Below are positions 12,636 to 42,107 of a DNA stretch of 64,000 nt, in pieces (the first letter of the stretch is position 1; each line of letters opens with the position of its first letter). Below the pieces are notes generated by a model. The model was not told the origin of the DNA and did no database searches. It saw only the letters and a list, made by a program, of their open reading frames with translations. The position numbers were made by a program, and so were the translations under genes. Source of the DNA: a virus. The stretch spans positions 32,001 through 96,000 of IMG/VR virus record IMGVR_UViG_3300032046_005540; one strand, 5' to 3'.

Positions 12636-12766
12636 TAAAAACCTCCAAAAAGAAAGCCACGTAAAGCATAAATCGCGGCTTTTGTTAACTTCTTTATGTG
12701 CTTCACTTTACTACTCCTTCTCATCAACTTTCTTAATTGATTTAATCAAACTTTACAATAAAAACC

Positions 12767-16335: not shown

Positions 16336-16394
16336 TTATTTACCTCCTTTTTTCAGCTTTCATAATAAAATACAAAAGTTTACAATGAAAATAA

Positions 16395-25300: not shown

Positions 25301-26186
25301 TGTCAAGTTGAGAAGTTTTACGCATACTTAAACTTCCAAATATTCCTGGTCCTTGAGGATGTGGTCCTGGAGAAGACTCATACTCCATAGGATTTGAATA
25401 ATTAGGATCTATATTTATTATATTTCCTTGTTCATCTGGGTAATTATAAAAAGGAAGACGTTGTCTTGGTTTTTTAGGACCTTTAGGCCATTCATCTGAT
25501 TTTCCAGGTTCATAAAAATTTTCTTGCATAGTTTCAGGTTCGGCTGTTTTACGAAAGTTTAAATTACTGCTAATTTTTAAATTACTTAATTCATCAAAAA
25601 AAGGATCATATCCAGGTTCTACTCCTTGTATTAAAATTTCTCCATATTTTCCATGACCATGCATAGTATTTATTACTTGATCTATTGCTATCATTTTTTC
25701 TTCAGGAGTTTTTGCTTGTTGTAATATATTAATAAAATTAGTAAAATCTTTAGTATAGGTTTTCATATACTGTGGAGGAGACATTCCTTGGAAAGTTTGT
25801 TCAAAAAATTGTTTATATTTTTCTAAAGTATCTAAAAATTTTGAAATAATCTCATCTTCTAATTCTTCATCATAAATACCTTTTGCTTCTTGAATATATA
25901 ATCTTTTTATTTCTTCTTTTGTAACTTGAGGAAGAGGAAAAGGATATTTCTGTTCAGATTTTTTCCTTAAACTCAAAGAAGCTATTTTTGGAATATAATT
26001 CAAAATAGATTCTTTCATTTCTTCTGGGGAAACAAAAAAAGTCCCTTTTAAATTATCCAAAATATGTTTTTTATAGAAATCATGGTGTGGATGATTTGTA
26101 GGCACTCCCTGTTCATTTAAAATTTCAGAAACGGAATTAGAGTCAGCAAAAAAATATCGAGGTTCACTTTCCAATCTTTTAATCAT
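16395..26186 (-). CDS. Giant 3263-aa multi-module (polyvalent) protein; candidate polyprotein
   Basis: Uninterrupted ORF; about 22 L[SN][ML]RKx[AS]-type linkers; NTase, ART-like, LRV and SH3 modules plus two repeated module families. Confidence 0.9.
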   Translation of the reverse strand: MIKRLESEPRYFFADSNSVSEILNEQGVPTNHPHHDFYKKHILDNLKGTFFVSPEEMKESILNYIPKIASLSLRKKSEQKYPFPLPQVTKEEIKRLYIQEAKGIYDEELEDEIISKFLDTLEKYKQFFEQTFQGMSPPQYMKTYTKDFTNFINILQQAKTPEEKMIAIDQVINTMHGHGKYGEILIQGVEPGYDPFFDELSNLKISSNLNFRKTAEPETMQENFYEPGKSDEWPKGPKKPRQRLPFYNYPDEQGNIINIDPNYSNPMEYESSPGPHPQGPGIFGSLSMRKTSQLDKQLFYDFYGVSLLSDQYLEQNPYASQYKDMIVQQVKEEYAPLITKSIYKALVYACRGVSVCLLDWNKWKKEFNIKNLGELKNLPLEQVSRIWNEGKWNKWMKRKVLPWGHITESLIQLINTSDTNQLITIIDHINDIQHNTGLLLEDFPETKKWIAEVLEIKAGTTLEQLLPYLSSDIQKFVIEDLQLKGQEVVEAPEKYLTGLEKSRLASNPRTPPETLVELAKDEDPGIRWEVAKNKNTLFETLTELVKDKEDFVRDEAKKRLKELKEFASKLNMRKKAQSVEYILEKLNKFKITNLGDIRLFIYNIASNVDVSEHLVNGLILDNMRRFPSSFIEQWKVYVTDEYGLGTFTEKLASEKIGEALGEWYRSFYKEPVENLVKDLKLEEIGVPWVKVPFSALLQKYTEDEIWDIASGKKTDVTVEEVEQAKEVISRGIVANKLSMRKETTKRNGRALWAIYEGQVVVNWNDREDHAGWFQDLGWPMSGVYFDRITRGRLENNNQVFWYKNTGTIEEYNNNLDALVVALELGPNVEFYVDYLNPKRIGHKKVIIEQEELLQPDLFSPSPEFIENLRFKKEKSKEEQEGKYKAFQKPFELIYGKSLKETIRKNIEEQFIIPQQLKLRFEKSAQFESQTTKQQLKRLYKQEAKGIYDEELMDQIIVDFINTIEGLIKFDEKDLKLSKGAEDEQIIHNIINDEKKMLQILQQATTPQEKMIAIDRVINTAHEFGVYGEYLITDIKSNDLFFEELSNLKVSSLNLKRIAQTEFKPGDEVEFDTTRYFGATRKSPGGVLKGKGIIKGKAEEGLYNIEIKEVTNVADDLVNVFKPGFTAPFAEDELKIKKPEKEIKKEIPVEKLEEKIEEPKKELIKVEEPKEVLKEIPTPVEEPKFTIEEEELEEKIPTEEEPEIAFAPTPTILGEPKEKIEEKEEKPFWQQLVNEVWKEYTKPRTLKKPFGSKTLVMRKEAVITPSELKTVYELELRYRELEQKYNEGTLTEAEFNQFQQTERKLDNLTDRIIRDLMFFFEDYFEWYEGIDPENIRKEEGELQVIEEMKQRWEELNNAFDINSKMIVIDNTINMMHVDFPIIWHLKMDYDEYLDRTSEEGLTLEKSKKVDEVWSNLIDFLQEQGKLKLAPKLTQKQKVVEKLSMRKQSQQNLTPEEEIFIKDFVKQFEHLHNAEEIYENLFNEKPFILDLTKHLEEDLKVFSDRSVFIALAILDQLKEDFGMLTSLKFGGKPKKYKGPIISILEDIAQDVWKALDLTEAKNIVLNRVENSQIAEEDKQTIINNVNRINNLLDLQKYIANSILAYEGMGTKLSMKKKATLDSEVINRTLNHFKENLELPKIYENIYNYVLNHYPELSTWEIERFSEIILGILESKEPNALVLGMRKKANADGLWAIYNGEIYKTTKEYKHHETWFEEIGLPTGGTAFDSAPRGIWYGNNWLIWYKDTGTFEEFSDNLPKLLSVLKLKPDTEISVRDPYFEELIPFEKVSLNLRKKAGIESHEYKYKEIHNKIPTYTFIGFQEFGDEKIIMVNCDICQSTLLLSLEEAKTHEYQIEGLPHGWEKEIKLSSLQLRKTAQNDEEDFPTPLTTKQELFRLYRQEAKGIYDEELMDEIISKFIQNLLELANWEEKHPLDSLTSIDWSQVTRGLISVLEKAKTPQEKMVAIDTVIHTSHMYDVYAQHLISGYFEYGPAKKDVWGPISEGSTFLDELSNLKISSSLNLRKKAETFIYDEPISNESSWAIYKGNVYITYSPGKRHPNWFEEIGLPSAGEVFDNIVRGYFYDYAFGSKDFKPEEKRIVWYGMGDYNEFYDHLEELKNALNFPPDAMVQMLDYTQGITTLAMKKEKETSNLITKTFNYLRKLFSVPNPILKSLDYPHSWPRKKKKEKIAQDISDSNKLSIQELKRFYKLERKGLLTDEFVDNVITKLIYGMEQEKIRIWNDPDIPEDLPKMYREGYEDDMNDFIHEMEIVLTKSLPEKIIAIDQIIHQAHLTYSFGWFQGDFDEIYNTIESIGEKEPIESLNLRMKKPASTVSEPTPNEPLQGQQGEHPEGEVYFQGKDKWLERQPDQGFDIKFPGKVKINRDPWLWGDNPTSEQTMTASLSLRKKAFINIGNIRKLYKQQLKTPGVYDHDLLVEIQYDFIENLQKLLEHMKKEYEGIEEDKDVEESIIIVEDDIRELEFAVTDENIMISIDNIISFIHDHFITGEPHIVMNMVNPNLEEEAEKLFETIFSQTEYLFNKKASILDYPQKHLDPEMWDLSGDLPKLKKDVKTLIIKRFIDYLREVGINNPELWCKGFYYTGSTATYRYLKTSDIDIHVEVDWDIYKENNLNKAKDDNEEMQKELLKVFWNTLNKEKLPGTSHPLTYYILSAKESVLTQGEEAYDILNDKWIVSPQKMPENLDVSDKIKLLQDKAENIMKKLDEELGKTKRDLIDYNILKELVSSYEGDKEDIQKLVEKKLEDIEQGLKQLQKENEQIHEERNKAFYDGQEPIEKGLSKNWTPGNILFKLIERYRYLDILRKIKHIIKDDQVTEEETKELEDVLIPKLSMRKTSQKLFSHETSKRNLESILQKGLDPSFVTEPGPFFKNIPGYPHFIMFTLYEPRELYRSDGGKGSPDSIYVIVSSATIQNFAELLNQYAPDTIMWYGEGLAEAQGIDNPTKEQLLDLGNKYMEWQGMTDWYISTEVISPENIKYILNNDEDVIWEPKLAMRKISFLTDNVSEIPENWVSQDKTDNKKLRRTNPPRHDKNDSIVEHNLDPHIDLASLSLRKKAFFENEGGLWAVYEGKVYITPPAKSVDWDSHVQWFETINLPSAGKKFDDIERGYYGKNFIGWLKDSGKLGNFVYYVPELITTLDLDPTITELEAYTPEDEHFPLGKVQEIMGSTTKLSFEGQPTTKNYNSPSLLLREDQGPGYPSEPAQAEIEGTVEDDPWGESNRLKKYKPTKELIFPDFSIPYGAEGGEIKQI

Positions 26187-26386
26187 TAATTTTCCTTCTT
26201 TTTCAAAGTATACCTATTTTTCTTCATATAATGCTTTTTTATAATTTGTCCTTCGTGAACTTCAATAAACATTTCACTATACGGGAAGCTACACAATTCT
26301 TTTAAAAGCTCTTTAATTTTTTTTAACTCCTCTTCCTCTATATGTTCTAAAATAACACAGATGTCCGATATCTCCTTATTTCTCAT
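26186..26386 (-). CDS. Small hypothetical protein, translationally coupled to the giant ORF
   Basis: TAATG overlap at 26186. Confidence 0.6.
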   Translation of the reverse strand: MRNKEISDICVILEHIEEEELKKIKELLKELCSFPYSEMFIEVHEGQIIKKHYMKKNRYTLKKKEN

Positions 26387-27068
26387 TTGACTCCTTTACT
26401 TTATATAACTTGAGCCTTTCTACTAAAACAAAAGTATTCCCAGTAAAAACAACTTTAGGTCTTGAATAAACTTCTTCAACTTTAATAACTTTTGGATCTC
26501 TTTGAATTTTTTGTTCTTTTACTGCTAAATCATTCAAAGCCTTTGTTATGCTCAAAACATCACTAATGTCATTTTCATCAGTTCTTAATTCTACTTCTTC
26601 TATATTTGCTGGAATACCAGCTTCAGGTATTTTAAATAAAAGTTTTGAGATAGGCTTTTTATCATCATTTTCCTTTGTAGTCCTTAGAGCGCTCATGGAA
26701 CAAAGTTTAACAAAATCATCTTCTCCTAAAGCATATACTTCAGGCCCTTCAACTTTAGGAATACTAATACCTTTAGGTGAAGGCTTTTCGTCTGAGGGTG
26801 TATCTGTTTTCTTTGTGTTATTCTTTTTTTGTTCTTCTTCGTAGTTAATTTCAACTACAGTCACTCCATCAGAATGTTGAACATAAAAAGACTTTAATGC
26901 TTCTGAAGAAATTCTTTTACCATTAACAAAAACTAAGACTCCTTTTTGTTGAATATCAGATTCTACTTCTTTCATTTCTTCTTCTACCATTTCTATCCCA
27001 GCCTTATCATCTGTTTCAGCTGCAATTATCTCTGCTGCAATTTTTTTACTTCTTTTACCTTTTACCAT
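26376..27068 (-). CDS. Hypothetical protein with N-terminal SKKIA motif
   Basis: Strong SD (AGGAGG) upstream; ORF track. Confidence 0.7.
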   Translation of the reverse strand: MVKGKRSKKIAAEIIAAETDDKAGIEMVEEEMKEVESDIQQKGVLVFVNGKRISSEALKSFYVQHSDGVTVVEINYEEEQKKNNTKKTDTPSDEKPSPKGISIPKVEGPEVYALGEDDFVKLCSMSALRTTKENDDKKPISKLLFKIPEAGIPANIEEVELRTDENDISDVLSITKALNDLAVKEQKIQRDPKVIKVEEVYSRPKVVFTGNTFVLVERLKLYKVKESNEK

Positions 27069-27128
27069 TTTTACTACCTCCTTTACTTTTTTAAATATTT
27101 AACTTAACTTTTTTTTTTATTTTTAAAG

Positions 27129-27353
27129 TTAGAATCTAGGTATAAAAACAACATCTAAAAGTTCCACATCACTCATCATTGCAAGAAAAAAAGATCTAGT
27201 TCCATCCTTGCTAATGTCAAAAGCAAAAAAGAGACCTCGTTCTACGGAATAAGGTTCCACAGTCCTCAAACTAGTATCTCCTTTTTGAGTAGTATACATA
27301 AATCTAATCAAACGATGGCTTTCAATTCCAGTATAAATATCTTCAAGAGCCAT
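27129..27353 (-). CDS. Stand-alone WYL domain protein
   Basis: [22 protein letters not shown]; start placed at MALED after GGAG. Confidence 0.75.
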
Positions 27354-28248
27354 TTGCAAACTCCTCCAATTTATAAATAAGAACATCTCTCAAAAATTCA
27401 TCATAAAAATCAAAGTACCAAATACAAAAACATTCAACTCCAACACTTTTATATTCATTTATTATTCTTTCGTGGTGATCCCACCAAAGTTCTTTCGTAA
27501 TAATAGGATCATGAAAATATCCTCCTAAAACCTCAACAACTTTTTTAGTTTTCTTAAAAGGTTCAACAATAAAATCTGGATTTCTATTTTTATATTTACC
27601 ATTTTTAATAGGAATCCAAAATTTTCCGTTACCTACGTATTTTACATTCTTAGGAACTACCTTCATTACTTCTTGTTCAAGTTTACTAGGACCTATACTA
27701 GCTTTTTCTTTACCTTTTTTCATTTTTCTTAACTCTTCTTCAGAGGGTTTTCTACCTCTTAAAGCTTTACTAATTTTCTCTTTTGTATTATCAAAACAAG
27801 GATGTCCTTTTAAAGCATTACTTATTTTTCTTTTATGTTCTTCAGAAAGAGGCCCTCTTTTTTTACCTTTATTTGATTTACTTATTTTCTGTTTTGTTTC
27901 TTCAGAACGGTATGTTCCATAAAGAGGATTTTTTTCTCCTTTTTTTGATTCCCCTATTTTTCTTTTTGTTTCTTCAGAACGAGGTATTCCTTTTTTAGAT
28001 TCACTAATTCTTTTAACACCTTCACTAATTTCTTTTGTTAAATTTTTATTCCAAGCTTTTCTCCCTTTAAGAGACTCGCTAATAGTTCTTAACTTATATC
28101 CATTTCTTTTAATAATATTTCTAATAGTCACATCACTACAATTCCATTTTTTAGCTAAAACTATACTATTTAATTTCTCTTCAGAAAAATATTCCTTACA
28201 AATTTGTAATTCCTGCTCTTTTGTAAATATTTCCAAAGTTATCACCAA
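27343..28248 (-). mobile_element. Free-standing homing-type endonuclease (HTH + NUMOD3 repeats + PD-(D/E)xK)
   Basis: [18 protein letters not shown] repeats; NPDFI..VVEV.G.YFH. Confidence 0.8.
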
Positions 28249-31200
28249 TTTCTCCGATCAAAAGACCTCTTTCCTCCAACTCTGTCCTTCAGATTTTTAC
28301 CCTTTTTCATATTCCAAAGAGATCCTCCTTTTGTTGGAGGGTGACTTGTTCCTAAAGATATAGGCATTCCCCCTAGACTTTTATGTAATTCTCGAATTAC
28401 TTTACTACTCATATCCTTCCTTAAATTTAGTCTATGTATCAAATTAGCTGACACTACACAAAAATCATCAGAAGTAACTGGGCCACTTGTTGGTGCAGCG
28501 TAATAGACAGTTCCGCCACTTATTATTTTTTGTAAATATTTCAACTCAAGCTTTAATTTTCCAGGCCAATTTTCTAAAGGGCTTTCATCTATCCCATAAC
28601 AAAAAACATTGTTTTGATTCAACTGCTCTAAAAAGGTTCCGAACATCTCACTTTTGTAACTATTAGTAAAGGTTGTTTCAAATGCAGGTAATTTCATTTT
28701 TCTTAATTTATTAACACTATCTATACTGGACCATTGATCATAACAAATTTCTATAACCTGCTTTCCCATCACACTTAAATTTGCAATCAATTTCAATAAA
28801 AATTCCATCACTACATCTGGATCAATCCTTTCCATAACAATTTTACCATCTTCCAACAATTTTACTGTAGGTTCAAATCCTTTTAAACCATCAATCCAAT
28901 ATCTTTCTTGAGGCCTATCTTCTCTATGACCCCAAGCAATAGCATAAGTGTCAGATTTGCTTGCGGGGTCTACTGTTATAATATACAACTGACCCGGGCG
29001 GCCTTTTAACAAAATTGGAGCAGTTGGAATAACCATATTATCTATTTTTTCTGGATTCAAAAATGTTGAAGAAGGTTCTCCAAAATGTGCTCCATATTCC
29101 ATTGCTGCAGAAACTGGGTCTTTTCTAAAATCATCATCAAAACTTTTTCTTTCATATTTAGGATTTGCTTCCCAAGTTGCAAGTTGTAACATTAAATATT
29201 TTTGATTTTTATAAACTTCTTCAGTTTTAGTTTGTTCTTTTCCTCCTGCAGAACAATACAAAGAATAAAACTCTCCAGCTTTTTCAGATGGAGAACTAAT
29301 TGCTATAATTAAACCATCATCTCCAAAATCTTTAACCGAAGGAGTTAAAGCAACCCACATTGCGTGGTCTGTTTGAGGTGCATCTATAAATTCTAAAGTT
29401 CTTTTTCTATAACTTGATCTGGAAAAATGTGCCATTTCATCAAAGGACAAACAATTATGACTTATAAAACCATTTGAAGTAAAATTATGAGTTTTCGGAA
29501 CAGTTACATCATACATTAACTGGCGAGATGAATTTTCTTTTTTAACTATTTTATCCCAAATACCTTTTTCTACAGTAATAACAAACCTTTTTGGTTTTGA
29601 ATGTTTTCTTTTTTGTAATTTTTTTACAAGAAAATCTAATCGTAAAGTATTATATGTATGCAATGTTCCAATTTCTTTAGCATATAACAATATATCATTA
29701 CTATGTACAGAAATTGCATAAATAACATTAGACCTTTTTATAGTTCTTTTCGAAGAAATAATTCCAAAATTTAATAAAAGTATTTGTAACTGATGAGCGA
29801 GTTTTTCTGAAACAGTGTGCATAGAAAGACATCCCCCACTATTTTTATCTCCAGGTTCAACACACCCATCACCATCAAAATATGCTTTTAAAAACTCTTT
29901 CACTATTTCCTTTGGAGACTGTAAAATACACCATGGAATTTCCTTTTTATAACTATTCACATAATCTATTCCAATAAATTCCAAAAATTTTCTTACTTTT
30001 TTACTACAAATAATAATACTAAAACATTTTTTAGTTGCTTTAAATTTAGAAATAGATGTTGACTTTTCATAAATATATTTAACATCAGGAAAACATTTTT
30101 TTATACAATATTTTATATCATTTAAAATTTCTTTATTAGTATTAGAAATGCTAATTTGTGTTTTCTCTGTTACATTTCCTTCTGCAACTAAATAACCTAA
30201 TAATCTAGCAAGTTCCTTTGACATCTTTTTAGGAACTTTTACATCTTTATATCTATTACATTTTCTCCAAAAATTAAAGGTATATAAAGGTGTTTTTGCA
30301 TATCTTTCTTTGTACTGATGTAAAGTTATTTTATGAGTATGTAAATGATCTTCATTTATAAGTTTAAAAAATTTTCCACAAATTTCACATTTTATTTCTT
30401 TTTCTTTATTACCTTTATATTCGTCCCAATAATTATAATTAAATTCAAAATTCTTCAAATTTCCAAAATAATTTTGTCCCTTTTGAATATAAACCCAATC
30501 ACCTTCTTTTAAACTATTTAATTCTTTATATTCAATATTATTTTCCGAAGACATTGTTAATATTTTATGATCTCTCGTTCCAACTAAATCAAATCCAAAT
30601 TTTGTAGTTATTTTTATGCTTTCTTTTTCACCAGAACACATTACATGAGATGTTATAGCCTTCCCAGTATTACCATACAATTGTATTTTTTTATTTAAAA
30701 CAGTTTCCTCATTACACTGAACAACATCTCTTATAGGAATTATTCCCTTCTCAGTAAATATCAAAGTATCTCCAGAAACACATTGAATTGCTTTTCCTCT
30801 TTTAGTTGCTGCAGATGTAGTAACGGATTCAATACAAATTGAACCCCGTAAAAGGTTCTTTTTCATTGAACCTTTTGGTTTCCCTTCATTAAACTTTTTT
30901 ATTTGAGAATTTAAAAACAAATCATAAGGAGAAAACACCCTCAATTCAGTTTCATTATCTTTTTCAAAGTCTATATACTTTTGAAAAAATTCAAGTTTTT
31001 TAATATTATCTTTTATAAGATTAAAGGTTTCTTTTGCTTGTTCTCCATCCGAAGCACAATTAAGAATATGAATTGGATGTCTTTCTCTTATATTATAATA
31101 TTTTTGAGGATTACCTTTACAAACAAGTTTATATGCTTCATATGAAGCAATCCAAGAAACTACAGAACTTTTTGATCCTCTCCTACCTATAACTAAAATT

Positions 31201-31478
31201 AAAACTTCAATTACTTGTTTTGCATTTCTATGTTCTAAATCTAAATCAATATTCCATTCAGTTTTTAGAATATCAATTATTTTCTGTTCTTCTTCAGTTA
31301 TAGGATACTTTTCCCACAATCCATATAACAACTTTAATACTAAACTTTGAAAAGGGAAAGGTCTTTCACCTAACCATTTATGAGAAGTAATAAAAGTTAA
31401 AGCATCTACTGGTTCAATCGGTGCGGTTAGTAAAACTCTTTCTTCGTATTTTTTATCTACTAAATCTTTGAAGGTCAT
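28242..31478 (-). CDS. terL: Terminase large subunit with LAGLIDADG intein
   Basis: PFPFQ, Walker A-like GRRGSKS, Walker B LSFDE, ISSP coupling motif, nuclease VDPA...SDD. Confidence 0.88.
29454..30782 (-). mobile_element. Intein (443 aa) with LAGLIDADG endonuclease and internal Zn-finger insert
   Basis: N-terminal CVSGDTL; C-terminal YDVTV..HNF..NGFISHN followed by C(+1); LLGYLVAEG and [10 protein letters not shown]; CEICG..H..H insert. Confidence 0.93.
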
Positions 31479-31489
31479 AAGTTTATTTA

Positions 31490-31843
31490 TTATTTTTCTC
31501 CTTTTTCAAATTCTTCTGGGTAATTTTCTTGATATTCTTGCCACAATTTTTGCATTTCTTTAAAAAGACTGTTATAGTGTTTTCTCTTTATAGAAGCAAA
31601 CCTATAATTTATCCAACGATCAAAAACTTCTTGTAAAGTTGTTTTTCCTTTTACAAGATTCTTTATAGCAGTTTGAAACCATCCTTCACTTTCCCAGTCT
31701 TCTCCCAAAAGAGTTACTACTTCCCCATAATCATCTTCAATATCATCTTTATCATATTTAAAGGCTCTTTTCCTCATACTTAATCTTTGACTCGATGTTT
31801 TTCTAAATCTTTTATTTTGATCTTGCGGTATAATTAAAATCAT
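31490..31843 (-). CDS. Hypothetical protein carrying the LSMRKRA linker near its N-terminus
   Basis: RFRKTSSQRLSMRKRAF; SD AGGAGG. Confidence 0.7.
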   Translation of the reverse strand: MILIIPQDQNKRFRKTSSQRLSMRKRAFKYDKDDIEDDYGEVVTLLGEDWESEGWFQTAIKNLVKGKTTLQEVFDRWINYRFASIKRKHYNSLFKEMQKLWQEYQENYPEEFEKGEK

Positions 31844-31865
31844 TTTACTACCTCCTTATTAAAAG

Positions 31866-32798
31866 TTATTCTTCATTTTCATTATCAACAATTTTTGCAT
31901 CTGCGGTTACCATCATTTTTGGATCTAACAAAGGGGAAATTCTTTCATCAAGTTTTTCTACAAATCGTTCTCTTACCCTATCCCTAGTTAAAGGATCTTC
32001 TATTTCCTGAACTAAAACATCAACAAAATCTTCAATAAATTTTTCTATTCCATCTCTAAAATTCTGTATCATTAAAATGTTGACGTTGGTTACTCCAGGT
32101 CCTTGTTCTATCTTGATGTGGTTGAGCAAATCCTTGGTAAGGCCTTTCATAATTTCATCAATTGCAACTGTTAATTTATGTAAATCAAGTTTATCTAATT
32201 CGGTTCTTTCTTCTTTTTTCTTATCTTCTATATGTTTTTTAGCAGATAAAAGTTCCCACAAATTTCTTAAACGAGCATCATATAACAAATTAACTGTTTT
32301 TACTTTGTTTAAAGTTTCATCATATTTTTGTTGATATAACTTCATAACTGCAGGACTAAAATCTACTAAACTTAATTCCCTTTTATTAGCATCTATTTTA
32401 GCAACCATCCTCGGGTCACAATGTTTTCGATGACTATTAATATTTACTGGATTCAAATATATTTTATCTTTCCACTTTGCTATAATTCCATGATAAGTCA
32501 TTCCTCCTAAAAGATCCATAGTAATTTCATTACGATATTGAGATTTGCATATCTTACATTTTTTAGAAATACGAAGCAGGCCTGGAGTTTCTTGAATATA
32601 ATTACCACTCCCAGGATGCCTTTTCACTTTAGGCTGTTTACTTATTCCTTTTGTAGATCCAGATGAATTACCAAAAACTTTTTCTTCAAAAAGTCGTTTT
32701 TCATTTGGATCGTTTGGGTCAAAAAATTCCCAATGAATTGAATCTACTGACCCAGATGGAAGTGTATTTAAATCCTTTGGATTTTGTTCTTCGATCAT
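31866..32798 (-). CDS. Zn-finger/HTH protein, candidate terminase small subunit
   Basis: CKIC...H..H followed by helical C-terminus; upstream of terL (positional inference). Confidence 0.45.
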   Translation of the reverse strand: MIEEQNPKDLNTLPSGSVDSIHWEFFDPNDPNEKRLFEEKVFGNSSGSTKGISKQPKVKRHPGSGNYIQETPGLLRISKKCKICKSQYRNEITMDLLGGMTYHGIIAKWKDKIYLNPVNINSHRKHCDPRMVAKIDANKRELSLVDFSPAVMKLYQQKYDETLNKVKTVNLLYDARLRNLWELLSAKKHIEDKKKEERTELDKLDLHKLTVAIDEIMKGLTKDLLNHIKIEQGPGVTNVNILMIQNFRDGIEKFIEDFVDVLVQEIEDPLTRDRVRERFVEKLDERISPLLDPKMMVTADAKIVDNENEE

Positions 32799-32802
32799 AA
32801 AT

Positions 32803-32946
32803 TTAGAAAGTTACCTTCTCTTTTTTTCGTTTTAAATATCCACACTTCGGACATTTATAAAGAGATAATTTAACCCCTTTATTTAATGATCCAACTGTTA
32901 TACCATTTTTACACTGAACCATTTCAGTACCACATTCGCATTTCAT
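32803..32946 (-). CDS. 47-aa Zn-ribbon protein (not in ORF track)
   Basis: Manual translation MKCECG...YKCPKCGY. Confidence 0.6.
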   Translation of the reverse strand: MKCECGTEMVQCKNGITVGSLNKGVKLSLYKCPKCGYLKRKKEKVTF

Positions 32947-32948
32947 TT

Positions 32949-33776
32949 TTACCTCACAATCTTACTACAAATTATACTTTTTACTTTTTCTGTATTATTT
33001 AAAATATCACTTTCCCAAAATCTTAAAAGAATGAAGTTGTTTTCTTTTACTAATTTTTCATTTTTAATATCTTTTTGATATTGTTTTAATTGTTTTTCAC
33101 TTAACTTTATAAACTTTTTTGTATTTCCATGATAATAATCACCATCTACTTCAATTAAAAAATTTGTATTTAAAATATGAAAGTCAAAAAGATGATTTCC
33201 TAATCTAAACTGATGTTCAAAAGGAATGTTTAATTCATTTAGAATTTCTTTCATTTTAAGTTCAGGTTTAGTATCTTTAAAAGGTCCAGGATTATTTTGA
33301 ATCCGAAGTAAAACTCTTTCTCTATCTTTTCTTTTGAATTCTTCAGAATGATGGTGATTATAAAAAGGATTTTTATCCCCTTTTCTAAGGTCACTCAATT
33401 TTTTCCTTTCTTTTGGATCTTTCCAACGTTGTATTACTTTTTCTCGAATTTTTTCTCGAACCTCTGGTCTTTTAGCTGGGTTATTTTCACCCTTAAATTT
33501 TTCTCTTAATTTTGCAAGAATAGTTGGATTTTTAAGGGCTTCTTTTATTTTCTTCCTTACTTCAGGTCTTTTTGCAGGATTATTTTCTCCTATAATTCCT
33601 TTACATGCCTTACTATGAGTTCTTAAAGAAAAACCTCTCCTTATAATAGCATTTCTAATTGCTGTATCACTACAATTCCATTTCCTTGCTAATACTAAAG
33701 TGCTTGGCTCTTCTTTAGAAAAATATTCATCACAAATTTGTTGTTCTTTTTCGTTTGTAAATAATTTATTAATCAT
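32949..33776 (-). mobile_element. Free-standing endonuclease (HTH + NUMOD3 + Vsr/DUF559-like)
   Basis: GENNPAKRPEVR repeats; TKPE...DF..IEVDGDYYH..LRFWE. Confidence 0.85.
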
Positions 33777-33790
33777 TTTTATCCTAAATT

Positions 33791-36700
33791 TTATAAAGAA
33801 AGTTCTAATTGTTCTCCTTCTGCAAGAAGACTACTTATAGACTTAATGTAACTCCATAAATTTCTCCCTAGCTCTTTTATGGAATCAAACACATCTGCCT
33901 TTTTAATAGTTCCTTCTCTTTTTGGAAATACAGTTAAAAGTCTTTGTTTTACATCTTTATCTAACGACGCAGCTCCACGTTCAGCTTTTTCTAAATAAGC
34001 TCTAGCTTCTTCTCCAAATTTCTCTAAAAGTTTCTCAACTCTCCATTTATCATCAGGTTTAAATTTTTTAGTTTTCATAGATGTATCCAACCATACAAAA
34101 AACTCCCCTACGTCAACTAATTTTTTTTCTGACTCACTTAACAAAGTAGCCAATTTCTCAATCGCTTGGCTCATTTCTTCAGCTTCTTTAACTGATTTAT
34201 GTTCCTCTTGAACCTTTCTAATTTCTTCTTCTACTTTTTGTCGAGCAGAATTTACAATTGCTTTTATTTCACCTAATCTTTGTTCGTGATCCTTAATTTC
34301 GTGGAAAGTCTCTTGCATTTTTGGAGTTGCCACAACAGCCTCTTCTACTTCTAACTCTGGTTTGTGTGGTTTTGTTTTTAAGGTCTTATACTCTACTTTC
34401 GGTTTTTCTTCAGTTTCTTCTTCTTGAGCAAATCTCAACGATTTCTTTTTAGAATCATACTTTTCTAAATAATTTTCTGTATTTTCAACCGCAGGCAAAA
34501 CAACTTCTTCTAATTCTTCTGCATGTTCTGCTTCATCATCAGCCATATCTTTTAAAGCTTTTTCTGCTTTAGGAGAATCAACTTCTTTTGCCATTTGATC
34601 ATACTTCTCTTCGCCTTCTGTTTCGTCCTTAATATCTTCTTTAACATCTTTTTCAGTAAGAGCTGCTTTTCGAATTTTTTGAATTATTTCATTAACTGAT
34701 TTACCTTGAGATATTTTTCTTTTAGCAGTTTTTTCTAAATCAGCTAAAGAAAATACATTTAATCTTCCATCATCTAAAATAACATTATATCCAGTGCCTA
34801 CAGTTCCTGATCTAAATTCATAATTAGGAGTAATTTCAGAAACTATTCCAGATAACCCACCAAGAGTTCTTACTTGATCTCCTTCACTTATAATTTTTTC
34901 TGCTGTTTTCTTTGAAGACCTTTTTTCATATAATCTAACATTTTCATCGTAAAAAGCTCCCTCATGTCCATCATCAAATCTTACCATATATTTATTCTGA
35001 ATTCCAGTCCAATCTACATCAAAAATTTCTCCTATCTTACCATAATCAACATGATCTTCTTCTACTACTTTTACTATATCTCCTATACTATAAGCAGCTG
35101 CTGTTTTCTTTTTTGAAGCATGAACTACAGGATAATGTTGATTTTTAAGTTTCTTGTCAAGAATTTCTTCTAACTCTTTTCTAGTCATTCTTGAAACTTC
35201 TGACATTACTTTTGTTAAATCAAAATCTGGAGGAAACTGACCTGCTCTTGCATAATCATTTATTAAAGTTCTTAATCTTGAAATAGGAATTTGTTTTCCG
35301 GTTTCATCTGTTTCATGATATCCAGTAGGTTCTGCTGTTTTCTTTATTGAAGATTTCTTACCTTTCATATGTTTAAACATTTCTACTTGTTGTAATCTTT
35401 CTTCTGCTTTCTTTCTTGAAGGGTAACAACCCATACTTCTACCAGATTCTGCTATTACACAAAATTCATTTCCTCTTTCAACTATTTTTGCTTCTTTAAT
35501 TGAAGCTTCTTTTGTTTCTTCCTCTTCAAACTCTTCATCCTCATCTTCTTCAATTAATTCTATTTGATTACCATTTACATACCAACCTCTTCCTTGCTCA
35601 TCTCCAACCCAACCTCTTCTTCCATCCCACTGAGATAAAGTAAAAACTTCTCCTGGTTTATCTTCATAAGCAGGTTTTAATCGAACTTGATCTCCATTTT
35701 GAAACTCATAATCTATTCCATCAGCAGTCTTTACAGGCTTTACAGAAGTTCCACCTCTAAACATTTTTTGAATTGCTCTTTCTTCTTCTGGAAGAATTCC
35801 TTGATTTGATTTTTCATAAGGAACACTAAAATCAGCATCAACTTCAGTTTGTTTTGCAACACTATAATCAGGATCTGATTCAGTAAAAGGAAATAAAGTT
35901 TTTTCATCTCTTAAACTTCTTTTAATTAAATTTTTAACTTTTTCTGCAAGCGTTGTAGTAGGAATTGCAGGAACAGCACCTGGAGTAGTTACAACTCCTG
36001 GAGTAGCTTGAATATTTAGATCCATATTAGGAATTGGAGCAGTTTTAACTCCTGTTTCATCTGTTAATACAGAAGCATCTCCTATAGTAGAATCAATTGT
36101 ATATATTTTTCCTTGATATTCAATTTGCTGACCAGGAGTAGGAATACCAGCTGCTGTTTTCTTAGAAGCTAATGCTAATAAATCTAACCTTTCTAATTTA
36201 TCAATAGAATTTTGATAAGCATCAAAAGCTTCTTGACGATTCATTCCAAATTCTTGTTCTAAATTTTTTACCATTTCTTCTAAAGTATAACCTCTTCTTA
36301 CTCCTATTCTAACTACATTATCTACACTATTTAATTCTTCTGCTGTTTTTTTAGAAGCAACCACTTCTCTAAATCTTGTAAAATCTCTTTCCTTAAAATG
36401 AATTTCAGGAGCACTAATTTTAGGTTCTGTAGCAGTAAATAATTTACCTGATAAGAAATCTGCAACTGCTTCTTTTGTAAAAGGAATTTCCCTTCCGTCT
36501 AAAGTAGAAAAAGTTTCAGGCAATACAACTTTACCAGCAGGAGTAATTCCAGCAGTAGCTAAAACTCTAAATCTTAAATCAAGATTATCGACTGCTTCTA
36601 TAGAAAATTCTGCTTCCCGAATGTTTTGTGGTCCTCCTTCTTTTACGCTACTTCTTGTGATTCCTCGTTGAAATCGAAGCTGAGGATTAAAGAAACCAAA

Positions 36701-37159
36701 TTTTTGGCAATATTTACCTAACTCGTGACAAATTTTTTCTAAGAGGGCTCTGTCAACCCAACTTTGGGGCGTGTAATTTGGCGTCACCCCTTGGTTCGGA
36801 TACACAGCAATTAAATTGGCTGCCCTATTAATTTTTGAATTTTGTTTTGTAGAAATTTTAATCAGCCGATCCACAATAAGAACTTTTCCACACTTAGGGC
36901 AAGAAATATAAGAATCTCCCCCCCGAGCTGATTCTACAATTTGTTTTTGCAAAAGATCCGCACTAAAAGAACTATGGCACCCAGAACATACATAAGAATA
37001 TGGTACTTGTTTTACAGATGATTTTGCATATTTACTAATTAAATTTTTTGTCTTTTCTGACAAAGGGTCCTTCTTTGTAGCTTCCTTTTTTATTTTTCTC
37101 TTATCAATCCAATCAGGAAGCTTGTTTTTATTTCCACCTTGTTTTTTTGGGACTAACAT
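33791..37159 (-). CDS. About 1120-aa multi-module protein; candidate polyprotein
   Basis: Zn ribbon, several KOW/SH3 modules and a ferritin-like ExxH module separated by ASKKTA-type linkers; ATG at 37159 after AGGAGG. Confidence 0.85.
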   Translation of the reverse strand: MLVPKKQGGNKNKLPDWIDKRKIKKEATKKDPLSEKTKNLISKYAKSSVKQVPYSYVCSGCHSSFSADLLQKQIVESARGGDSYISCPKCGKVLIVDRLIKISTKQNSKINRAANLIAVYPNQGVTPNYTPQSWVDRALLEKICHELGKYCQKFGFFNPQLRFQRGITRSSVKEGGPQNIREAEFSIEAVDNLDLRFRVLATAGITPAGKVVLPETFSTLDGREIPFTKEAVADFLSGKLFTATEPKISAPEIHFKERDFTRFREVVASKKTAEELNSVDNVVRIGVRRGYTLEEMVKNLEQEFGMNRQEAFDAYQNSIDKLERLDLLALASKKTAAGIPTPGQQIEYQGKIYTIDSTIGDASVLTDETGVKTAPIPNMDLNIQATPGVVTTPGAVPAIPTTTLAEKVKNLIKRSLRDEKTLFPFTESDPDYSVAKQTEVDADFSVPYEKSNQGILPEEERAIQKMFRGGTSVKPVKTADGIDYEFQNGDQVRLKPAYEDKPGEVFTLSQWDGRRGWVGDEQGRGWYVNGNQIELIEEDEDEEFEEEETKEASIKEAKIVERGNEFCVIAESGRSMGCYPSRKKAEERLQQVEMFKHMKGKKSSIKKTAEPTGYHETDETGKQIPISRLRTLINDYARAGQFPPDFDLTKVMSEVSRMTRKELEEILDKKLKNQHYPVVHASKKKTAAAYSIGDIVKVVEEDHVDYGKIGEIFDVDWTGIQNKYMVRFDDGHEGAFYDENVRLYEKRSSKKTAEKIISEGDQVRTLGGLSGIVSEITPNYEFRSGTVGTGYNVILDDGRLNVFSLADLEKTAKRKISQGKSVNEIIQKIRKAALTEKDVKEDIKDETEGEEKYDQMAKEVDSPKAEKALKDMADDEAEHAEELEEVVLPAVENTENYLEKYDSKKKSLRFAQEEETEEKPKVEYKTLKTKPHKPELEVEEAVVATPKMQETFHEIKDHEQRLGEIKAIVNSARQKVEEEIRKVQEEHKSVKEAEEMSQAIEKLATLLSESEKKLVDVGEFFVWLDTSMKTKKFKPDDKWRVEKLLEKFGEEARAYLEKAERGAASLDKDVKQRLLTVFPKREGTIKKADVFDSIKELGRNLWSYIKSISSLLAEGEQLELSL

Positions 37160-37169
37160 TGGCAACCTC

Positions 37170-38207
37170 CTATATATTATTTAAATTATTTTCAATTTCT
37201 TTCAAATCTTTTATAACAATTAACTTTAAATCTTTATATCCATATTCATCTAACAACTTTCTTCTCTGTAAATAATATTGTTCATCAGTTAATTTAAAAT
37301 CAAAAGAATGAAATTCTACAACAATTTTATCATTTACTAAAAAATCAAATCGCCCTCTAAAATTATGATCAATTTTAAAACCTAATTTCTTTAATTCTAT
37401 ATAACAATCTCTTTCTTGTATTGAAGGAAAAAATTCGTTATCATAATAACAATGATTCCCATGACCATTTTTTAAAGATTGTTGAATAGCTTTTGGAGTA
37501 CTGTTTGCTTTACTAATTTTTTCTCTTATTTTAGGATCTTTCATTATTTTCTGTAATTGAATACTTTTCCTTTTTCTTGCTTCTTTAGTTTGTGCCACTT
37601 CAAACTTTGTTCTCAAGGAAAACCCACAACGTTTAATAGCATCTCGAATAACACAAGGACTACAATTCCATTTTTTACTCAAAGTAAAAGCACTTGGTTT
37701 ATCTTCAGAAAAATATTCATTACAAATTTGCTGTTCTTTTTCTTTTGTAAAAGTCTTCTTTGTATCACTCATTTTCTTTTTTGTTTCTTCAGAACGAGGA
37801 ATACCTATTTTTTTATCTCTTATTTTTTTCTTAGATGCATCAGAAAGATGAGTACCATACATAGGGCTATTCTCCCCTTGCAAAGAGACACTAATTTTTC
37901 TTTTATGTTCTTCAGATTTTGGTTTACCTTTTAATTTTTCACTTATTTTCTTATTTCTTTCCGGTGAAAAAATTTTAGCAACTCTTTCGTCGGTCTCTTT
38001 AGTAAGATTTTTATTCCAAGCTTTTTTACCTTTACAAGATTCACTATGAGTTCTTAAAGAAAAACCATTTCTTTTAATAACATTGCTAATTGTTAAATGA
38101 TTACAACTCCATTTCTTTGCTAAAATAATAGTAGTTGGTTTTTCTTTTGAAAAATACTCATCACAAATTACTTTTTCTTGAATATCTGTGAATCTTCTTT
38201 TCGTCAT
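37170..38207 (-). mobile_element. Free-standing endonuclease (two HTH modules + NUMOD3 + PD-(D/E)xK-like)
   Basis: Duplicated EYFS.KP..L.KKW.C module; QERDCY..GRFDF..IVVEFH. Confidence 0.78.
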
Positions 38208-38218
38208 ATATTTTCCTT

Positions 38219-41056
38219 TTAGAACACCACGGGCGTTGCGGGCTCTGATTTTTTCTCTGCACTACCTTCTCCAACTTCTTCTTCTTCTACTTCCTCTGTT
38301 TCAAGTTCCCCTTCAGTTCCTTCAGTTGTTGGAGCTTCTGCACCAATTGGTTCTTCTTCTTTTTCTATTTTTTCTCCTTCTTCACCCTCAAAACTTACGT
38401 GCACGTCCTTAGTTTTAGGATTTACAATTACATGAATTTCTTCTACTTCTTCTTCAGTTTCTGATTCTTCTTGCTCTTCAGGCTTCTCAGGAAGACGTGG
38501 GAACTTTGTTTCTTTAACGCTCCAGTTCATAGGAGTCAATTTATCCGATCCAGCACCGCCACCACCCCTCAATGCTTCCATTCCATCTGCTTTCTTCTTT
38601 ATACTTGTTTCCTTTCTTAATTCTTCAGGAAACAAAGAATTAAAAATTTGATGAAATTCTTCTTCGGTTACAATATAATTTTCACTATCAAGCCAATCTC
38701 TTAAACTTCGATCTATATCTTTAGAAGGAGTTGTTTCATCAATTCTATATGTTTCAAGGAAATCTTCTTTTATATGCCCAACTACTTTCTCTATAGGAAT
38801 TTCAACTGCTTCTTTTTTTATTGAAGCAATTGAAGATAATTTTCCTAAATGTTTTTCAACATAATTAATAAGATCCAATAATTTTCCAGAACGATATGTT
38901 TTTTCTCTTTCTGGAGACTTTTCTATTTTATCTGACTCTTCTTTATAATCAGATTGAAGACCATCTAATACTTCAAGAAGGTCGTCAAAATCATCCCAAT
39001 TTTCATGAATAAGTTTTAACCATTCTCTTGCAGGTTTAGAAGCTGTTTTCTTTTTCGAAGCTCTCCTTACTTGTTCTATATAACCACATCCATGACATTC
39101 CCACTGTAGTTCTCCTTCTGCTATATGACTTGCTCCTAAAGTCATTTCGGAACCACATTTCGGACACGTTTCAGTTTCAACTTTATAAGATTGTTTTGAA
39201 GCTTCTTTTTCAATTTGAATACCTTCATGCTGCAAAAAATTCAACACTAAAGCTTTATATTCAGGAGAATCATAAAGCCAATAACCACGAATACCTTTAA
39301 ATGCTTTTGCATAAGCATCTTTTGGTGAAAGACCAGACTGTACCAAAGATTTCACAGTATCTATAAATCTTTGGATTTCACTACTAAGAGGTAATTGTTT
39401 TGTTTGTTCTATTGCTTGGTTACACTGGTTTTCACCTTCACTTTGCAATTCTTGTTTTTTCACTATATCACTTGCCTGAAACTCAAAGGACTGCCAAATA
39501 TCAGAAGTCTCTTCTTCACCAGGTTCTTGAACATAAACTGCAAAATAACACATACCTCCATGCGTTATACTTACTTGAGTTAAAACCACTTTGTAACCAT
39601 TATCCAAAACCTTTTCTTTATGAACAAATTGACCTCTCTTTATCGATGCTTCTTTTTCAGTTTCTTCTTCAGGCTCTAAATCTACTTCTTCTAACTCTTC
39701 AGGCTCTTCTTTTGAAGGTTCTTTAGCAGGAGATGTTGGAGGACTTTGTAAAGATTTAAAATAATGCCTTAAATCTTTTGGATCATCCACCCACAAAGTT
39801 TGAACAACATTTTGTGCTTTTTTAATAGAAGCTGTTTCAGTCATCTGAAGTTTTTGGATCCTTCTTTCTACTAAATTAATCAAATCTTTAACTTCTTCCA
39901 TTTTATCTTGATAAAAACTTGGGTTAGCGTTATATTCAGATATATCAGTCTCCATTGATCTTAATCTACTCTGGAGTCTTTCCAAAAGATGATTAAGATC
40001 CTCTAATGAACCGGAACTATAGAAGTATTCATCTCTTTCACTTTCTAGAAAGGCAATCTTCGTTCTTTTCTCAGCAGCAACCTTATTTATTCTATTTTCA
40101 TTTGCAATCTTTTCTAATTGCCTTTTAGAATAAGAAGCACCACACTTACATTTAAACGTTCCTAATTTTTTCAACATTTGTAAAGACATTTTTGCATTAC
40201 ATATAGGACATAAAGAAACAGGCCTAATTATATTATCTTCAAACCAAGTTGAAGGTAGATCTTTAAAACTAACTTTAGAACGGTCTGGAACTGCAGCAAC
40301 TACTTCTCCTATTTTACCATTATATTTTTCATAAAGATTTCCATGAGGAACATCTATTTGAACAATAGTTCCAGGCGAATGGGAGGTTTTGGAGGAGGTT
40401 TTAGAAATTTTTAATCCATATTGATGCCCTGGAGGCGAAGATTTTCTTTCATATTCCTTAACTACTTCATTAAAAACTTTTTTCAACTTATCAAGATTAA
40501 GAGTTGAATACAAATCATTAACACTTTCAACATAAATATTTTTTTCTTCAACTTCTCGGTCATCAATAGAATTTTCCAAATCTTCTGCTTCATAAACTAC
40601 CACCCAAGAAGAAGGTTTCTCTTCAAAACCTTGTAAAGAAGATATAACAACATATCCATTTGGTAATTCTTTTCGATCAATAAAAACACCAAAAACCTCA
40701 GGGTCTTCAAATTCTTCTCCTGGAAGTTCTGCTGTTTTCTTAGAAGCCTTCACCTGCCTCACGATTCTATCATTATCTCCATCAGTATATACTACTATCC
40801 AAGCCTCATCCTCTCCGTTTGCATTTTTAATTGTTTCCTTCTTCCAAATCGATCCAGCGTCAGGCTCAATTGTTCTCCGAAAAATATCCCACGAAATTTT
40901 TTCAAAACCTTTTTCAGTAAAAGGCACTGCTCCACGTTTTCGTAAATCAGAAACTCTTTTCTGATATTTAATATCAGCAACAGCTTTCCTCATAAAATCA
41001 GGAATTTCATTCCCAAATAATCGACGAACTTTGTTTAAATAACTTTTGTTTACCAT
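38219..41056 (-). CDS. 945-aa multi-module protein; candidate polyprotein
   Basis: KOW, Zn ribbons and duplicated modules separated by ASKKTA/ASIKKxA linkers. Confidence 0.85.
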   Translation of the reverse strand: MVNKSYLNKVRRLFGNEIPDFMRKAVADIKYQKRVSDLRKRGAVPFTEKGFEKISWDIFRRTIEPDAGSIWKKETIKNANGEDEAWIVVYTDGDNDRIVRQVKASKKTAELPGEEFEDPEVFGVFIDRKELPNGYVVISSLQGFEEKPSSWVVVYEAEDLENSIDDREVEEKNIYVESVNDLYSTLNLDKLKKVFNEVVKEYERKSSPPGHQYGLKISKTSSKTSHSPGTIVQIDVPHGNLYEKYNGKIGEVVAAVPDRSKVSFKDLPSTWFEDNIIRPVSLCPICNAKMSLQMLKKLGTFKCKCGASYSKRQLEKIANENRINKVAAEKRTKIAFLESERDEYFYSSGSLEDLNHLLERLQSRLRSMETDISEYNANPSFYQDKMEEVKDLINLVERRIQKLQMTETASIKKAQNVVQTLWVDDPKDLRHYFKSLQSPPTSPAKEPSKEEPEELEEVDLEPEEETEKEASIKRGQFVHKEKVLDNGYKVVLTQVSITHGGMCYFAVYVQEPGEEETSDIWQSFEFQASDIVKKQELQSEGENQCNQAIEQTKQLPLSSEIQRFIDTVKSLVQSGLSPKDAYAKAFKGIRGYWLYDSPEYKALVLNFLQHEGIQIEKEASKQSYKVETETCPKCGSEMTLGASHIAEGELQWECHGCGYIEQVRRASKKKTASKPAREWLKLIHENWDDFDDLLEVLDGLQSDYKEESDKIEKSPEREKTYRSGKLLDLINYVEKHLGKLSSIASIKKEAVEIPIEKVVGHIKEDFLETYRIDETTPSKDIDRSLRDWLDSENYIVTEEEFHQIFNSLFPEELRKETSIKKKADGMEALRGGGGAGSDKLTPMNWSVKETKFPRLPEKPEEQEESETEEEVEEIHVIVNPKTKDVHVSFEGEEGEKIEKEEEPIGAEAPTTEGTEGELETEEVEEEEVGEGSAEKKSEPATPVVF

Positions 41057-41068
41057 ATTAATCTCTCC

Positions 41069-41977
41069 TTATAAAAAATTTATTAAAAACTTACTAAAAA
41101 TTATCCTTTTCACTTTTTCTGTATTATTCATAATATCGTTTTGCCAAAATCTTAATAAAACAAAATTATTAGTTTTTGCAAGTCTTGTATTTTGAGCATC
41201 TTTTAGTTTTTGTATTAATTGGTTTTCAGTTAAATCGTCAAATATTTCAGGATTACCATGATAGTAGTCTCCGTCAACTTCTATAAGAATATTGGTGTTA
41301 GAAATATGAAAATCGTAAAGATGATTTCCTAATCTAAATTGATGTTCAAAAGAAATAGTTAATTCATTAAGAATCTCTTTCATTTTAATCTCAGGTTTAG
41401 TATTTTTCCAAGGCCCAAGATTATATTGGTATCGTTGTAAAGCTTTTTCACTTATTTTTCTTTTTGTTTCTTCCGAATATGTGTTTCCATAATTAGGAGC
41501 TTCTTCACCAAACCTATGAACTCCGAACATTGGGTTATTTTCACCTTCATGGTTTTTTCTATATTCAGGATTTTTCCAACGTTCTTCAGCAGCTTTACTC
41601 ATTTTTTCTTTTGTTTCCTCAGAACGTTTTTGCCCGGTTAAAGAATCACTAATTTTTTGTTTTGTTTCTTCAGATTTTAGTTTACCTAAATTTGGACCTG
41701 TTTTTCCTAGCCAATAATAATGTTTACCTTTAGCAGAAATACTCATTTTTTCTTTAGTAGTATCTGAACGAACCTTTCCTGACCAATATCCAAGTTTCCC
41801 ATCAAGAGATTCTGCATGAGTTCTTAAAGAAAACCCATTTCTTTTTATAATATTACAAATAGTCATACTATCACAATTCCATTTTTTGCCTAAAAATACA
41901 ACACCTGGTTTCTTTTCTGAAAAATAATCGTTACAAATTTCAATTTCTTGTTCTTTTGTAAACTTTCTTTTACTCAT
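41069..41977 (-). mobile_element. Free-standing endonuclease (HTH + NUMOD3 + Vsr/DUF559-like)
   Basis: Nuclease domain very similar to 32949..33776; start moved to MSKRKFT, matching its paralogues. Confidence 0.85.
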
Positions 41978-42107
41978 TATTTTCACTCTCTGAGCATTTT
42001 TTACAAATTTTTTTCCCATTTTTACCACTGTAAAGAACATTTGTTTTCTTTTTACAAATTTCACAAATTAAAGGAACAGATATTCCTTTTGCTTTCTTTT
42101 TTAGCAT
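41970..42107 (-). CDS. 45-aa Zn-finger protein (not in ORF track) starting MLKKKA
   Basis: SD AGGAGGT; CEIC...CKKC. Confidence 0.65.
   Translation of the reverse strand: MLKKKAKGISVPLICEICKKKTNVLYSGKNGKKICKKCSESENNE

Follow-up and report, generated by a model that had tools for sequence, protein, structure and literature searches.

A linker peptide of phage polyproteins near the N-terminus of a 117-residue protein: a candidate head-protease cut site carried by single modules

Introduction

Proteins can be loaded into shells of the HK97 fold by short terminal peptides, such as those on the cargo of encapsulins or the capsid-targeting tail at the C-terminus of the HK97 protease; such peptides act by binding to the shell and do not serve as repeated cut sites. 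In phage T4, the prohead protease gp21 cuts at sites of the form (Leu/Ile)-x-Glu. The T4 internal proteins IPI–III and Alt carry a capsid-targeting sequence (CTS), are cleaved by gp21, and are highly diverse except for this conserved targeting sequence (PMC3012670, PMC9026906). In the giant phages SPN3US and phiKZ, a single motif ending in Glu marks where N-terminal propeptides are removed from many head and ejection proteins, with cuts proven by mass spectrometry (PMC10052503, PMC7411985); from two small SPN3US head proteins, propeptides of 20 and 24 residues are removed by the prohead protease (PMC10052503). Polyvalent proteins of phages and conjugative elements, described by Iyer et al. in 2017, are large and consist of several modules; their genes lie next to those for portal and terminase, packaging and delivery of the proteins are predicted, and a release of individual domains by peptidases has been discussed (PMC5512222). 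Here, we describe a linker peptide which punctuates a giant open reading frame (ORF) of an uncultured phage, IMG/VR record IMGVR_UViG_3300032046_005540, and which also stands near the N-terminus of a small protein of 117 amino acids (aa) encoded in the same region.

The window analysed is a stretch of 64,000 nucleotides (nt), bases 32001–96000 of this 168,267-base-pair record. Positions refer to the window, unless they are marked as genome coordinates, which count along the whole record. The record has about 29% G+C, and its minus strand carries nearly all genes. Two features are central to the analysis:

16395..26186, minus strand, giant polyprotein of 3263 aa with 20 linker copies, used as the reference set
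31490..31843, minus strand, ORF of 117 aa with a full linker from residue 21

The explanation we favour, with confidence evenly balanced, is that the 117-aa ORF encodes a stand-alone module whose leader would be cut by the head protease. It builds on the statistics and distribution of the motif, the conservation of sites in head proteins, the disorder and charge of the leader and the movement of modules at linkers; cleavage of the linker, the protease responsible, entry into the capsid and ejection are predicted here from sequence and a structural model.

Occurrence of the linker motif in the proteome

The linker of the giant ORF follows the pattern L-(S/N)-(M/L/F)-R-K-(K/T/E/Q)-(A/S), with 20 clear copies between modules. 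A 9-column profile was built from these copies only (own scores 10.6–25.8 bits) and scanned over the 231 ORFs called genome-wide, with the giant ORF excluded; the 5-residue core was searched by regular expression. Outside the giant ORF, 10 matches reached ≥12 bits, compared to about 0.73 per shuffled proteome (maximum of 3 in 200 shuffles), and six reached ≥19 bits, where 0.013 are expected per shuffled proteome. Among the latter was LSMRKRAFK at residues 21–29 of the 117-aa ORF (31757..31783, minus strand), which scored 19.9 bits. The match in the 117-aa ORF is thus real and not a product of chance, and its description as near-exact in a first-pass annotation of the sequence is borne out. A six-frame scan yielded just three extra matches, all on the non-coding strand and about the number expected by chance.

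The 10 held-out full matches were confined to four proteins, giving five linker-bearing proteins together with the giant ORF. Besides the 117-aa ORF, the held-out proteins are:

Genome 12125-13018 (L001), ORF of 297 aa between the portal and protease-scaffold genes, full linker at residue 52
Genome 15322-18879, polyprotein B, 1185 aa, portal-adjacent, five copies at ≥12 bits, the first at residue 4, and a weaker C-terminal one
Genome 150473-152029 (L006:2473-4029), ORF of 518 aa in the tail module, copies at residues 5, 370 and 497

Varied synonymous codons are used for the Arg, Lys, Ala, Ser and Leu of the linker, and its Met has no ribosome-binding site upstream, which argues for selection on the peptide rather than on DNA or an internal start. 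A DNA-level element is accordingly disfavoured by the codon spread, and internal translation initiation at the linker Met was rejected, given the missing ribosome-binding site, the varying codons and the frequent replacement of Met by Leu or Phe.

Sorted by protein class, the full and core matches were distributed as follows (the giant ORF being left out of the full matches):

Polyproteins, 5 proteins: 8 full matches; core seen 26 times, 1.06 expected
Portal, protease-scaffold and capsid protein, 3 proteins: no full match; core seen 3 times, 0.34 expected
Other head-module ORFs, 11 proteins: 1 full match; core seen 2 times, 0.55 expected
Other ORFs of the 26376-42107 block, 10 proteins: 1 full match; core seen 2 times, 0.75 expected
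Tail, baseplate and fibre block, 30 proteins: no full match; core not seen, 0.98 expected
Rest (replication, nucleotide, glycan and small ORFs), 172 proteins: no full match; core seen 3 times, 3.7 expected

Since none of the 30 tail, baseplate and fibre proteins carried any copy, a division into virion and non-virion proteins is too coarse; the motif separates proteins of the head interior or prohead from all others. The remark in the first-pass annotation that replication proteins lack the full motif was correct, and the proteome-wide profile scan it had proposed showed no equal frequency in replication and metabolic proteins. Core matches in two further ORFs (genome 3592-3945 and 85194-86249) lie upstream of the starts indicated by orthologues and are probably outside the proteins.

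The 117-aa ORF

The start of the 117-aa ORF is fixed by the Shine–Dalgarno sequence AAGGAGG (31851..31857, minus strand), 7 nt before the ATG at 31843, so that the linker is part of the protein itself and no artefact of a wrongly called start. A second, core-only copy, FRKTS, was found at residues 13–17 (31793..31807, minus strand), 10 residues before the counterpart core of the full copy. The same core heads the 518-aa protein, and the giant ORF contains the close variants FRKTA and MRKTS. The leader (residues 1–27) has an isoelectric point of 12.0, compared to 4.8 for the body (residues 28–117). In a single-sequence AlphaFold2 model, residues 1–38 were without secondary structure, with a predicted local distance difference test score (pLDDT) below 50 for most of residues 1–29, and residues 39–115 formed a helical bundle with pLDDT of about 85–91. 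The model gives moderate support to a linker placed in an accessible, unstructured N-terminal segment.

The protein has one domain and is no more than a single-module relative of the polyproteins nearby. A word-indexed search of 5.8 billion proteins returned the 117-aa ORF itself alone, and a full HMMER search returned only a eukaryote-type SH3 repeat protein and an Ig-like repeat protein, spurious hits inflated by the repeats; no phage record was matched. BLAST found no paralogue beyond the linker, and descent from module B of the giant ORF was rejected, the corresponding five-copy profile scoring 0.5 bits. With regard to the fold, look-alikes in the ESM Atlas (integrase arm-binding and SAM-like domains; score 0.90–0.92, few shared features) gave no name, and Foldseek against the PDB gave nothing below E = 2.7. 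The relative G001, whose terminase is 77% identical, keeps the gene order, but a GIY-YIG-type endonuclease gene occupies the site of the 117-aa ORF. An origin of the 117-aa ORF as a remnant of that homing endonuclease was discarded for want of a tblastn match.

The beginning of the gene has a duplicate. A stretch of 42 nt (31815-31856, minus strand), comprising the ribosome-binding site, the ATG and the first 9 codons, recurs with 38/42 identical positions at L006:7539-7580, where it opens a 39-aa ORF (beginning MSLIIPQNQKGLYLRK) in the tail module that overlaps the start of a 164-aa gene; in fragments of relatives, the repeat was not seen. The opening MxLIIPQ of the 117-aa protein recurs only in this one doubtful 39-aa ORF. 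The 19 residues following the part encoded by the 42-nt stretch share 58% identity with a polyprotein B linker region.

Linkers at protein termini

The four held-out proteins have their first copies at residues 4, 5, 21 and 52, an N-terminal bias relative to uniform placement (Fisher combined p = 0.005); among proteins of ≤300 aa, two matches fell within the first 60 residues against 0.13 expected. N-proximal copies were also compared in two further polyproteins of the block:

33791..37165, minus strand, polyprotein of 1124 aa with ASKKTA-type linkers and an N-proximal IKKEA at residues 25–29 (37079-37093)
38219..41056, minus strand, polyprotein of 945 aa with ASKKTA and ASIKKxA linkers and an N-proximal FMRKAV at residues 21–26 (40979-40996)

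At the matching places, the G001 orthologues have LKKIAS for IKKEA and FVNKAL for FMRKAV. In three homologues of the 297-aa protein, LSMRKK is found at about residues 52–56 and the surrounding sequence has otherwise diverged. A portal-adjacent 722-aa ORF of the relative G003, in the position of polyprotein B, begins with two tandem linker copies.

Linkers also end proteins: polyprotein B stops about 4 residues after a copy, and a 144-aa ORF of L009 has one at residue 136. In the relative L031 (L031:3706-6238), the giant gene is split at a linker into a 153-aa ORF ending in SLNLRQKA and, after 49 nt with a ribosome-binding site, an ORF which starts with MKLNMKIS and continues into a WAIY-type module. 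The 518-aa protein is 52% identical to residues 1740–2125 of the G001 giant polyprotein, where the linker that it carries at residue 5 is internal. Terminal linkers are thus accounted for by modules splitting and fusing at their joints, that is, by gene fission and fusion.

The same events are the basis of the rival that survives best, according to which an N-terminal linker would be a scar of module shuffling, an inherited joint that serves neither as leader nor as address, whether it is cut or not. The joint that is internal in G001, the split gene of L031 and the C-terminal copies all speak for it, and so does the leader of the 117-aa protein, which looks assembled from the shared 42-nt stretch and the polyprotein B-like 19 residues. 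The retention of N-proximal copies in diverged orthologues (the 297-aa homologues, the G003 ORF and the two ASKKTA-type polyproteins) argues for selection instead. A scar is moreover compatible with cleavage and overlaps with the stand-alone module that we favour; taken as the whole explanation, we consider it possible though unlikely.

The stretches before the first linker are unrelated sequences, 3 to 70 residues in length. The first-pass annotation had proposed a cleavable leader or targeting tag analogous to the T4 CTS. A cleavable leader is plausible for the 117-aa protein, given its disordered basic extension, the N-terminal bias and the presence of the core at head-protein sites described below; the targeting tag was unsupported, with unrelated pre-linker stretches and linkers that also end proteins. 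From these comparisons, an N-terminal linker is best read as a putative cut site carried by every module, rather than an address. A combined function, in which the linker would be both address and cut site, appears improbable. Here, the scaffold-fused protease could hold linker-bearing proteins in its active sites during closure of the shell, one linker copy at either end would load a protein into the procapsid, and activation would release it. If true, this would amount to a one-peptide cargo tag for a capsid of the HK97 fold, and tagged stand-alone genes such as the 117-aa ORF would be swappable cargo.

Some observations on the other linker-bearing proteins are recorded here. The first ~50 residues of the 297-aa head-module protein are conserved in relatives, and the protein has two copies of TKTPKKLAV and one of SSKKEAK, which may be further cut-site variants. 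The 518-aa protein follows a tail-tube-initiator-like gene in the tail module; its ORF is parted from a downstream 793-aa tail protein with an M23 peptidase match by a single in-frame TAA, followed at once by ATG, and read-through of this TAA would fuse both proteins.

Core motif in head proteins and the proposed cleavage

The capsid protein (genome 5251-6240) was assigned by PHROG 2522 (E = 9e-54) and by an NCBIfam HK97-fold capsid model whose alignment begins at residue 44. Its residues 11–17 read GFRKEAP, with the core FRKEA at 13–17; relatives have GFSKKAP and GFQKTAP, giving the pattern GF(R/S/Q)K(E/K/T)AP. The 1444-aa protease-scaffold fusion (genome 6833-11167) begins with a match to a head maturation protease (PHROG 18299, E = 9.6e-11); a long, charged region resembling a scaffold comes next. 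In five aligned relatives, LEKIAS just after the protease domain is conserved, as are SIKKA(S/H), K(T/K)AA, LSKKAD and IRK(K/Q)A(S/A/N) further on. The portal has FIRKKAQ here and LLRKQAA in a 48%-identical portal. By the counts and these alignments, one motif, in its 5-residue core, is common to the capsid protein, the portal, the protease-scaffold and the polyproteins.

The following course of events is proposed. The 117-aa ORF would be a single module of the linker-punctuated system, placed in a gene of its own and expressed late, along with the terminase. The leader would comprise the first ~27 residues, disordered and strongly basic, with two tandem linker copies. The head-maturation protease, i.e. 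the N-terminal domain of the 1444-aa fusion, would most likely recognise and cut the linker; trimming of the capsid protein, scaffold digestion and separation of the polyprotein modules would fall to this enzyme as well. Cutting would leave an acidic helical protein of ~90 residues in the head, which would probably be delivered with the DNA.

Several points weigh against this proposal. The searches gave no homologue of the 117-aa ORF, and G001, the nearest relative that covers the site, lacks it; owing to the 42-nt duplicate and the polyprotein B-like residues that follow, the gene may be a recent chimera. The sites in head proteins match the 5-residue core only, which is weak evidence on its own, and those in the capsid proteins of relatives have no Arg. 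The protease domain is named by its PHROG match alone, searches of Pfam, NCBIfam and PDB sequences being blank, and an AlphaFold2 model of the protease from 5 sequences was unusable (mean pLDDT 39). Finally, three other peptidase genes lie near the giant gene:

14081..14959, minus strand, trypsin-like peptidase (Pfam Trypsin_2, E = 1e-12), conserved downstream of the giant gene in G001
13192..14112, minus strand, S49 peptidase with an N-terminal hydrophobic segment (Pfam Peptidase_S49, E = 1.5e-25), conserved in G001
6499..7146, minus strand, second trypsin-like peptidase (Pfam Trypsin_2, E = 1.2e-17)

These genes raise the alternative that the linker is cut in the host cytoplasm by the trypsin-like peptidases of the phage, in the style of RNA-virus polyproteins, so that the modules would be at work in the cell instead of travelling in the virion as cargo. 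All three are found in the 10 kb downstream of the giant ORF, G001 keeps the arrangement with the first trypsin-like gene and the S49 gene, and the S1 pocket of trypsin-like enzymes suits Arg and Lys, so that the conserved Arg-Lys pair would be a fitting substrate by what is known of the family. Against cytoplasmic cutting, the core is found at conserved sites of the capsid protein, scaffold and portal, the classic substrates of head proteases; the linker genes stand in late or structural operons beside portal, terminase and tail genes; and the conserved Leu, Ser/Asn, Met/Leu and Ala exceed a simple basic-residue rule. We regard this alternative as doubtful, to the same degree as the combined address and cut site.

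The 230-aa and 45-aa ORFs

Two further ORFs of the block had been offered as carriers of the linker, in addition to the 117-aa ORF:

26376..27068, minus strand, ORF of 230 aa with an N-terminal SKKIA at residues 7–11 (27036-27050)
41970..42107, minus strand, zinc-ribbon ORF of 45 aa with MLKKKA at 42090-42104, a core match only

All three quoted N-termini are present in the sequence as written. For the 230-aa ORF (MVKGKRSKKIA), however, the assignment as a linker did not stand. The sole resemblance of its SKKIA is to the ASKKTA-type linker found in the 1124-aa and 945-aa polyproteins; SKKIA scored <12 bits on every 9-column profile, and 9.4 bits on the ASKKTA-type 5-residue core profile, as rank 2 among N-termini. 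Comparison with its six orthologues (seven family members) showed S replaced by N at 87–88% identity and KKIA lost at ≤75%. The family keeps only MVK and a lysine-rich stretch, with a conserved domain from about residue 44. On this alignment, SKKIA was not confirmed and is not counted as a linker copy.

The 45-aa ORF is probably a real gene: AGGAGGT lies 5 nt before its ATG, and it encodes a CxxC...CxxC zinc ribbon. An endonuclease gene seemingly overlaps it; judged by the paralogues of that gene, a start at MSKRKF is more plausible. MLKKKA fits the 5-residue core, leaves no room for the upstream L and S/N, and sits among starts such as MKKKK and MKKEK; the sole known orthologue (G001, 49% identical) retains MLKKKAKG. 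The peptide is indistinguishable from an ordinary lysine-rich start, and the sequence case for a linker copy is weak and undecided.

That the linker is never cut and forms a flexible basic hinge, for example in contact with DNA, with N-terminal copies that are lysine-rich starts of an AT-rich genome, is the least probable explanation, with only a slim chance of being right: lysine-rich N-termini are common (MKKKK, MKKEK, MKRKK) and would explain the 45-aa and 230-aa ORFs well, but a hinge would account neither for the conservation of non-basic positions, nor for a motif confined to five proteins, nor for the conserved sites in capsid protein, scaffold and portal, nor for the 19.9-bit match in the 117-aa ORF.

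With regard to surroundings, two tiny zinc-ribbon ORFs (41970-42107, 45 aa; 32803-32946, 47 aa) are each followed immediately by a homing-endonuclease gene, and G001 has retained both ORFs. Ahead of the 45-aa ORF lie a terminator-like hairpin (42191-42176) and a site resembling a promoter (42169-42142), so that the polyprotein operon may begin with this ORF.

Gene order

In transcription order, the block 26376-42107 starts with the 45-aa ORF, a homing-endonuclease gene, the 945-aa modular protein, an endonuclease gene, the 1124-aa modular protein and an endonuclease gene. The 47-aa zinc-ribbon ORF, a 310-aa ORF, the 117-aa ORF, the large terminase gene with an intein and an endonuclease gene follow, and then a WYL-domain ORF, the 230-aa ORF, a 66-aa ORF and the 3263-aa giant ORF. 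The gene next to the 117-aa ORF is:

28242..31478, minus strand, large terminase with intein (terminase match), directly downstream of the 117-aa ORF with an 11-nt gap

The stretch from the 310-aa ORF through the 117-aa ORF to the terminase gene contains no terminator-like site. A promoter scan was uninformative, as it found fewer sites than in shuffled sequence. For the 310-aa ORF, a scan of viral contigs found no relatives.

In G001, three genes (675, 372 and 472 aa) lie between the ASKKTA-type polyprotein and the zinc-ribbon ORF (L012:3720-8280); they are absent at the corresponding position of the present genome. NUMOD-type homing-endonuclease genes stand between most large genes, and mobile insertions differ among relatives (28242-31478 of the window; L002:996-4196; L010:8600-9256). 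The terminase intein is present here and not in G001 or L031 (637 aa), the portal also has an intein, and the capsid gene of the relative G004 is broken by a 218-aa endonuclease-like ORF.

Comparison with described systems

The 117-aa protein resembles the T4 internal proteins, which are small, fast-evolving and share little beyond an N-terminal leader removed by a protease; likewise, the 117-aa ORF is without homologue and absent in the nearest relative. In T4, however, a separate conserved address peptide is combined with a Glu-type cut site, whereas here only the basic peptide L-S/N-M/L-R-K-x-A is shared. No conserved N-terminal address peptide of the CTS kind was found in the linker-bearing proteins, the pre-linker stretches being unrelated and the same peptide also ending proteins. 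The motif is basic and follows no Glu rule, unlike the (Leu/Ile)-x-Glu specificity of gp21, and with regard to a capsid-type cut site at the end of the leader, FRKEA at residues 13–17 of the capsid protein shares only the core with the linker. The protease is fused to the scaffold here, matches PHROG 18299 only and is not demonstrably gp21-like.

The SPN3US propeptides of 20 and 24 residues are close in length to the ~27-residue leader proposed here. The difference to SPN3US and phiKZ lies in the basic motif and in a cut which is predicted from sequence. The system described here thus differs from those of T4 and SPN3US in its basic motif, the missing separate address peptide and the scaffold-fused protease.

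Polyvalent proteins were described with embedded peptidase domains, and the description includes neither a repeated short linker shared with capsid, scaffold and portal nor linker-headed single-module genes (PMC5512222). Polyvalent proteins combine several unrelated effector-type domains, and the 117-aa ORF has one domain. The terminal peptide described here would differ from the loading peptides of encapsulins and HK97 in being a repeated putative cut site.

Conclusions

What is new here is the single-module form, a modest extension of the linker system of the polyproteins, and the 117-aa gene is the smallest and easiest candidate substrate of this system. If the linker is the site of the head protease, the head cargo of this phage group would be encoded as interchangeable modules, either strung together or as single genes, under one basic peptide mark, and the cargo proteins of uncultured phages would be predictable from sequence alone.

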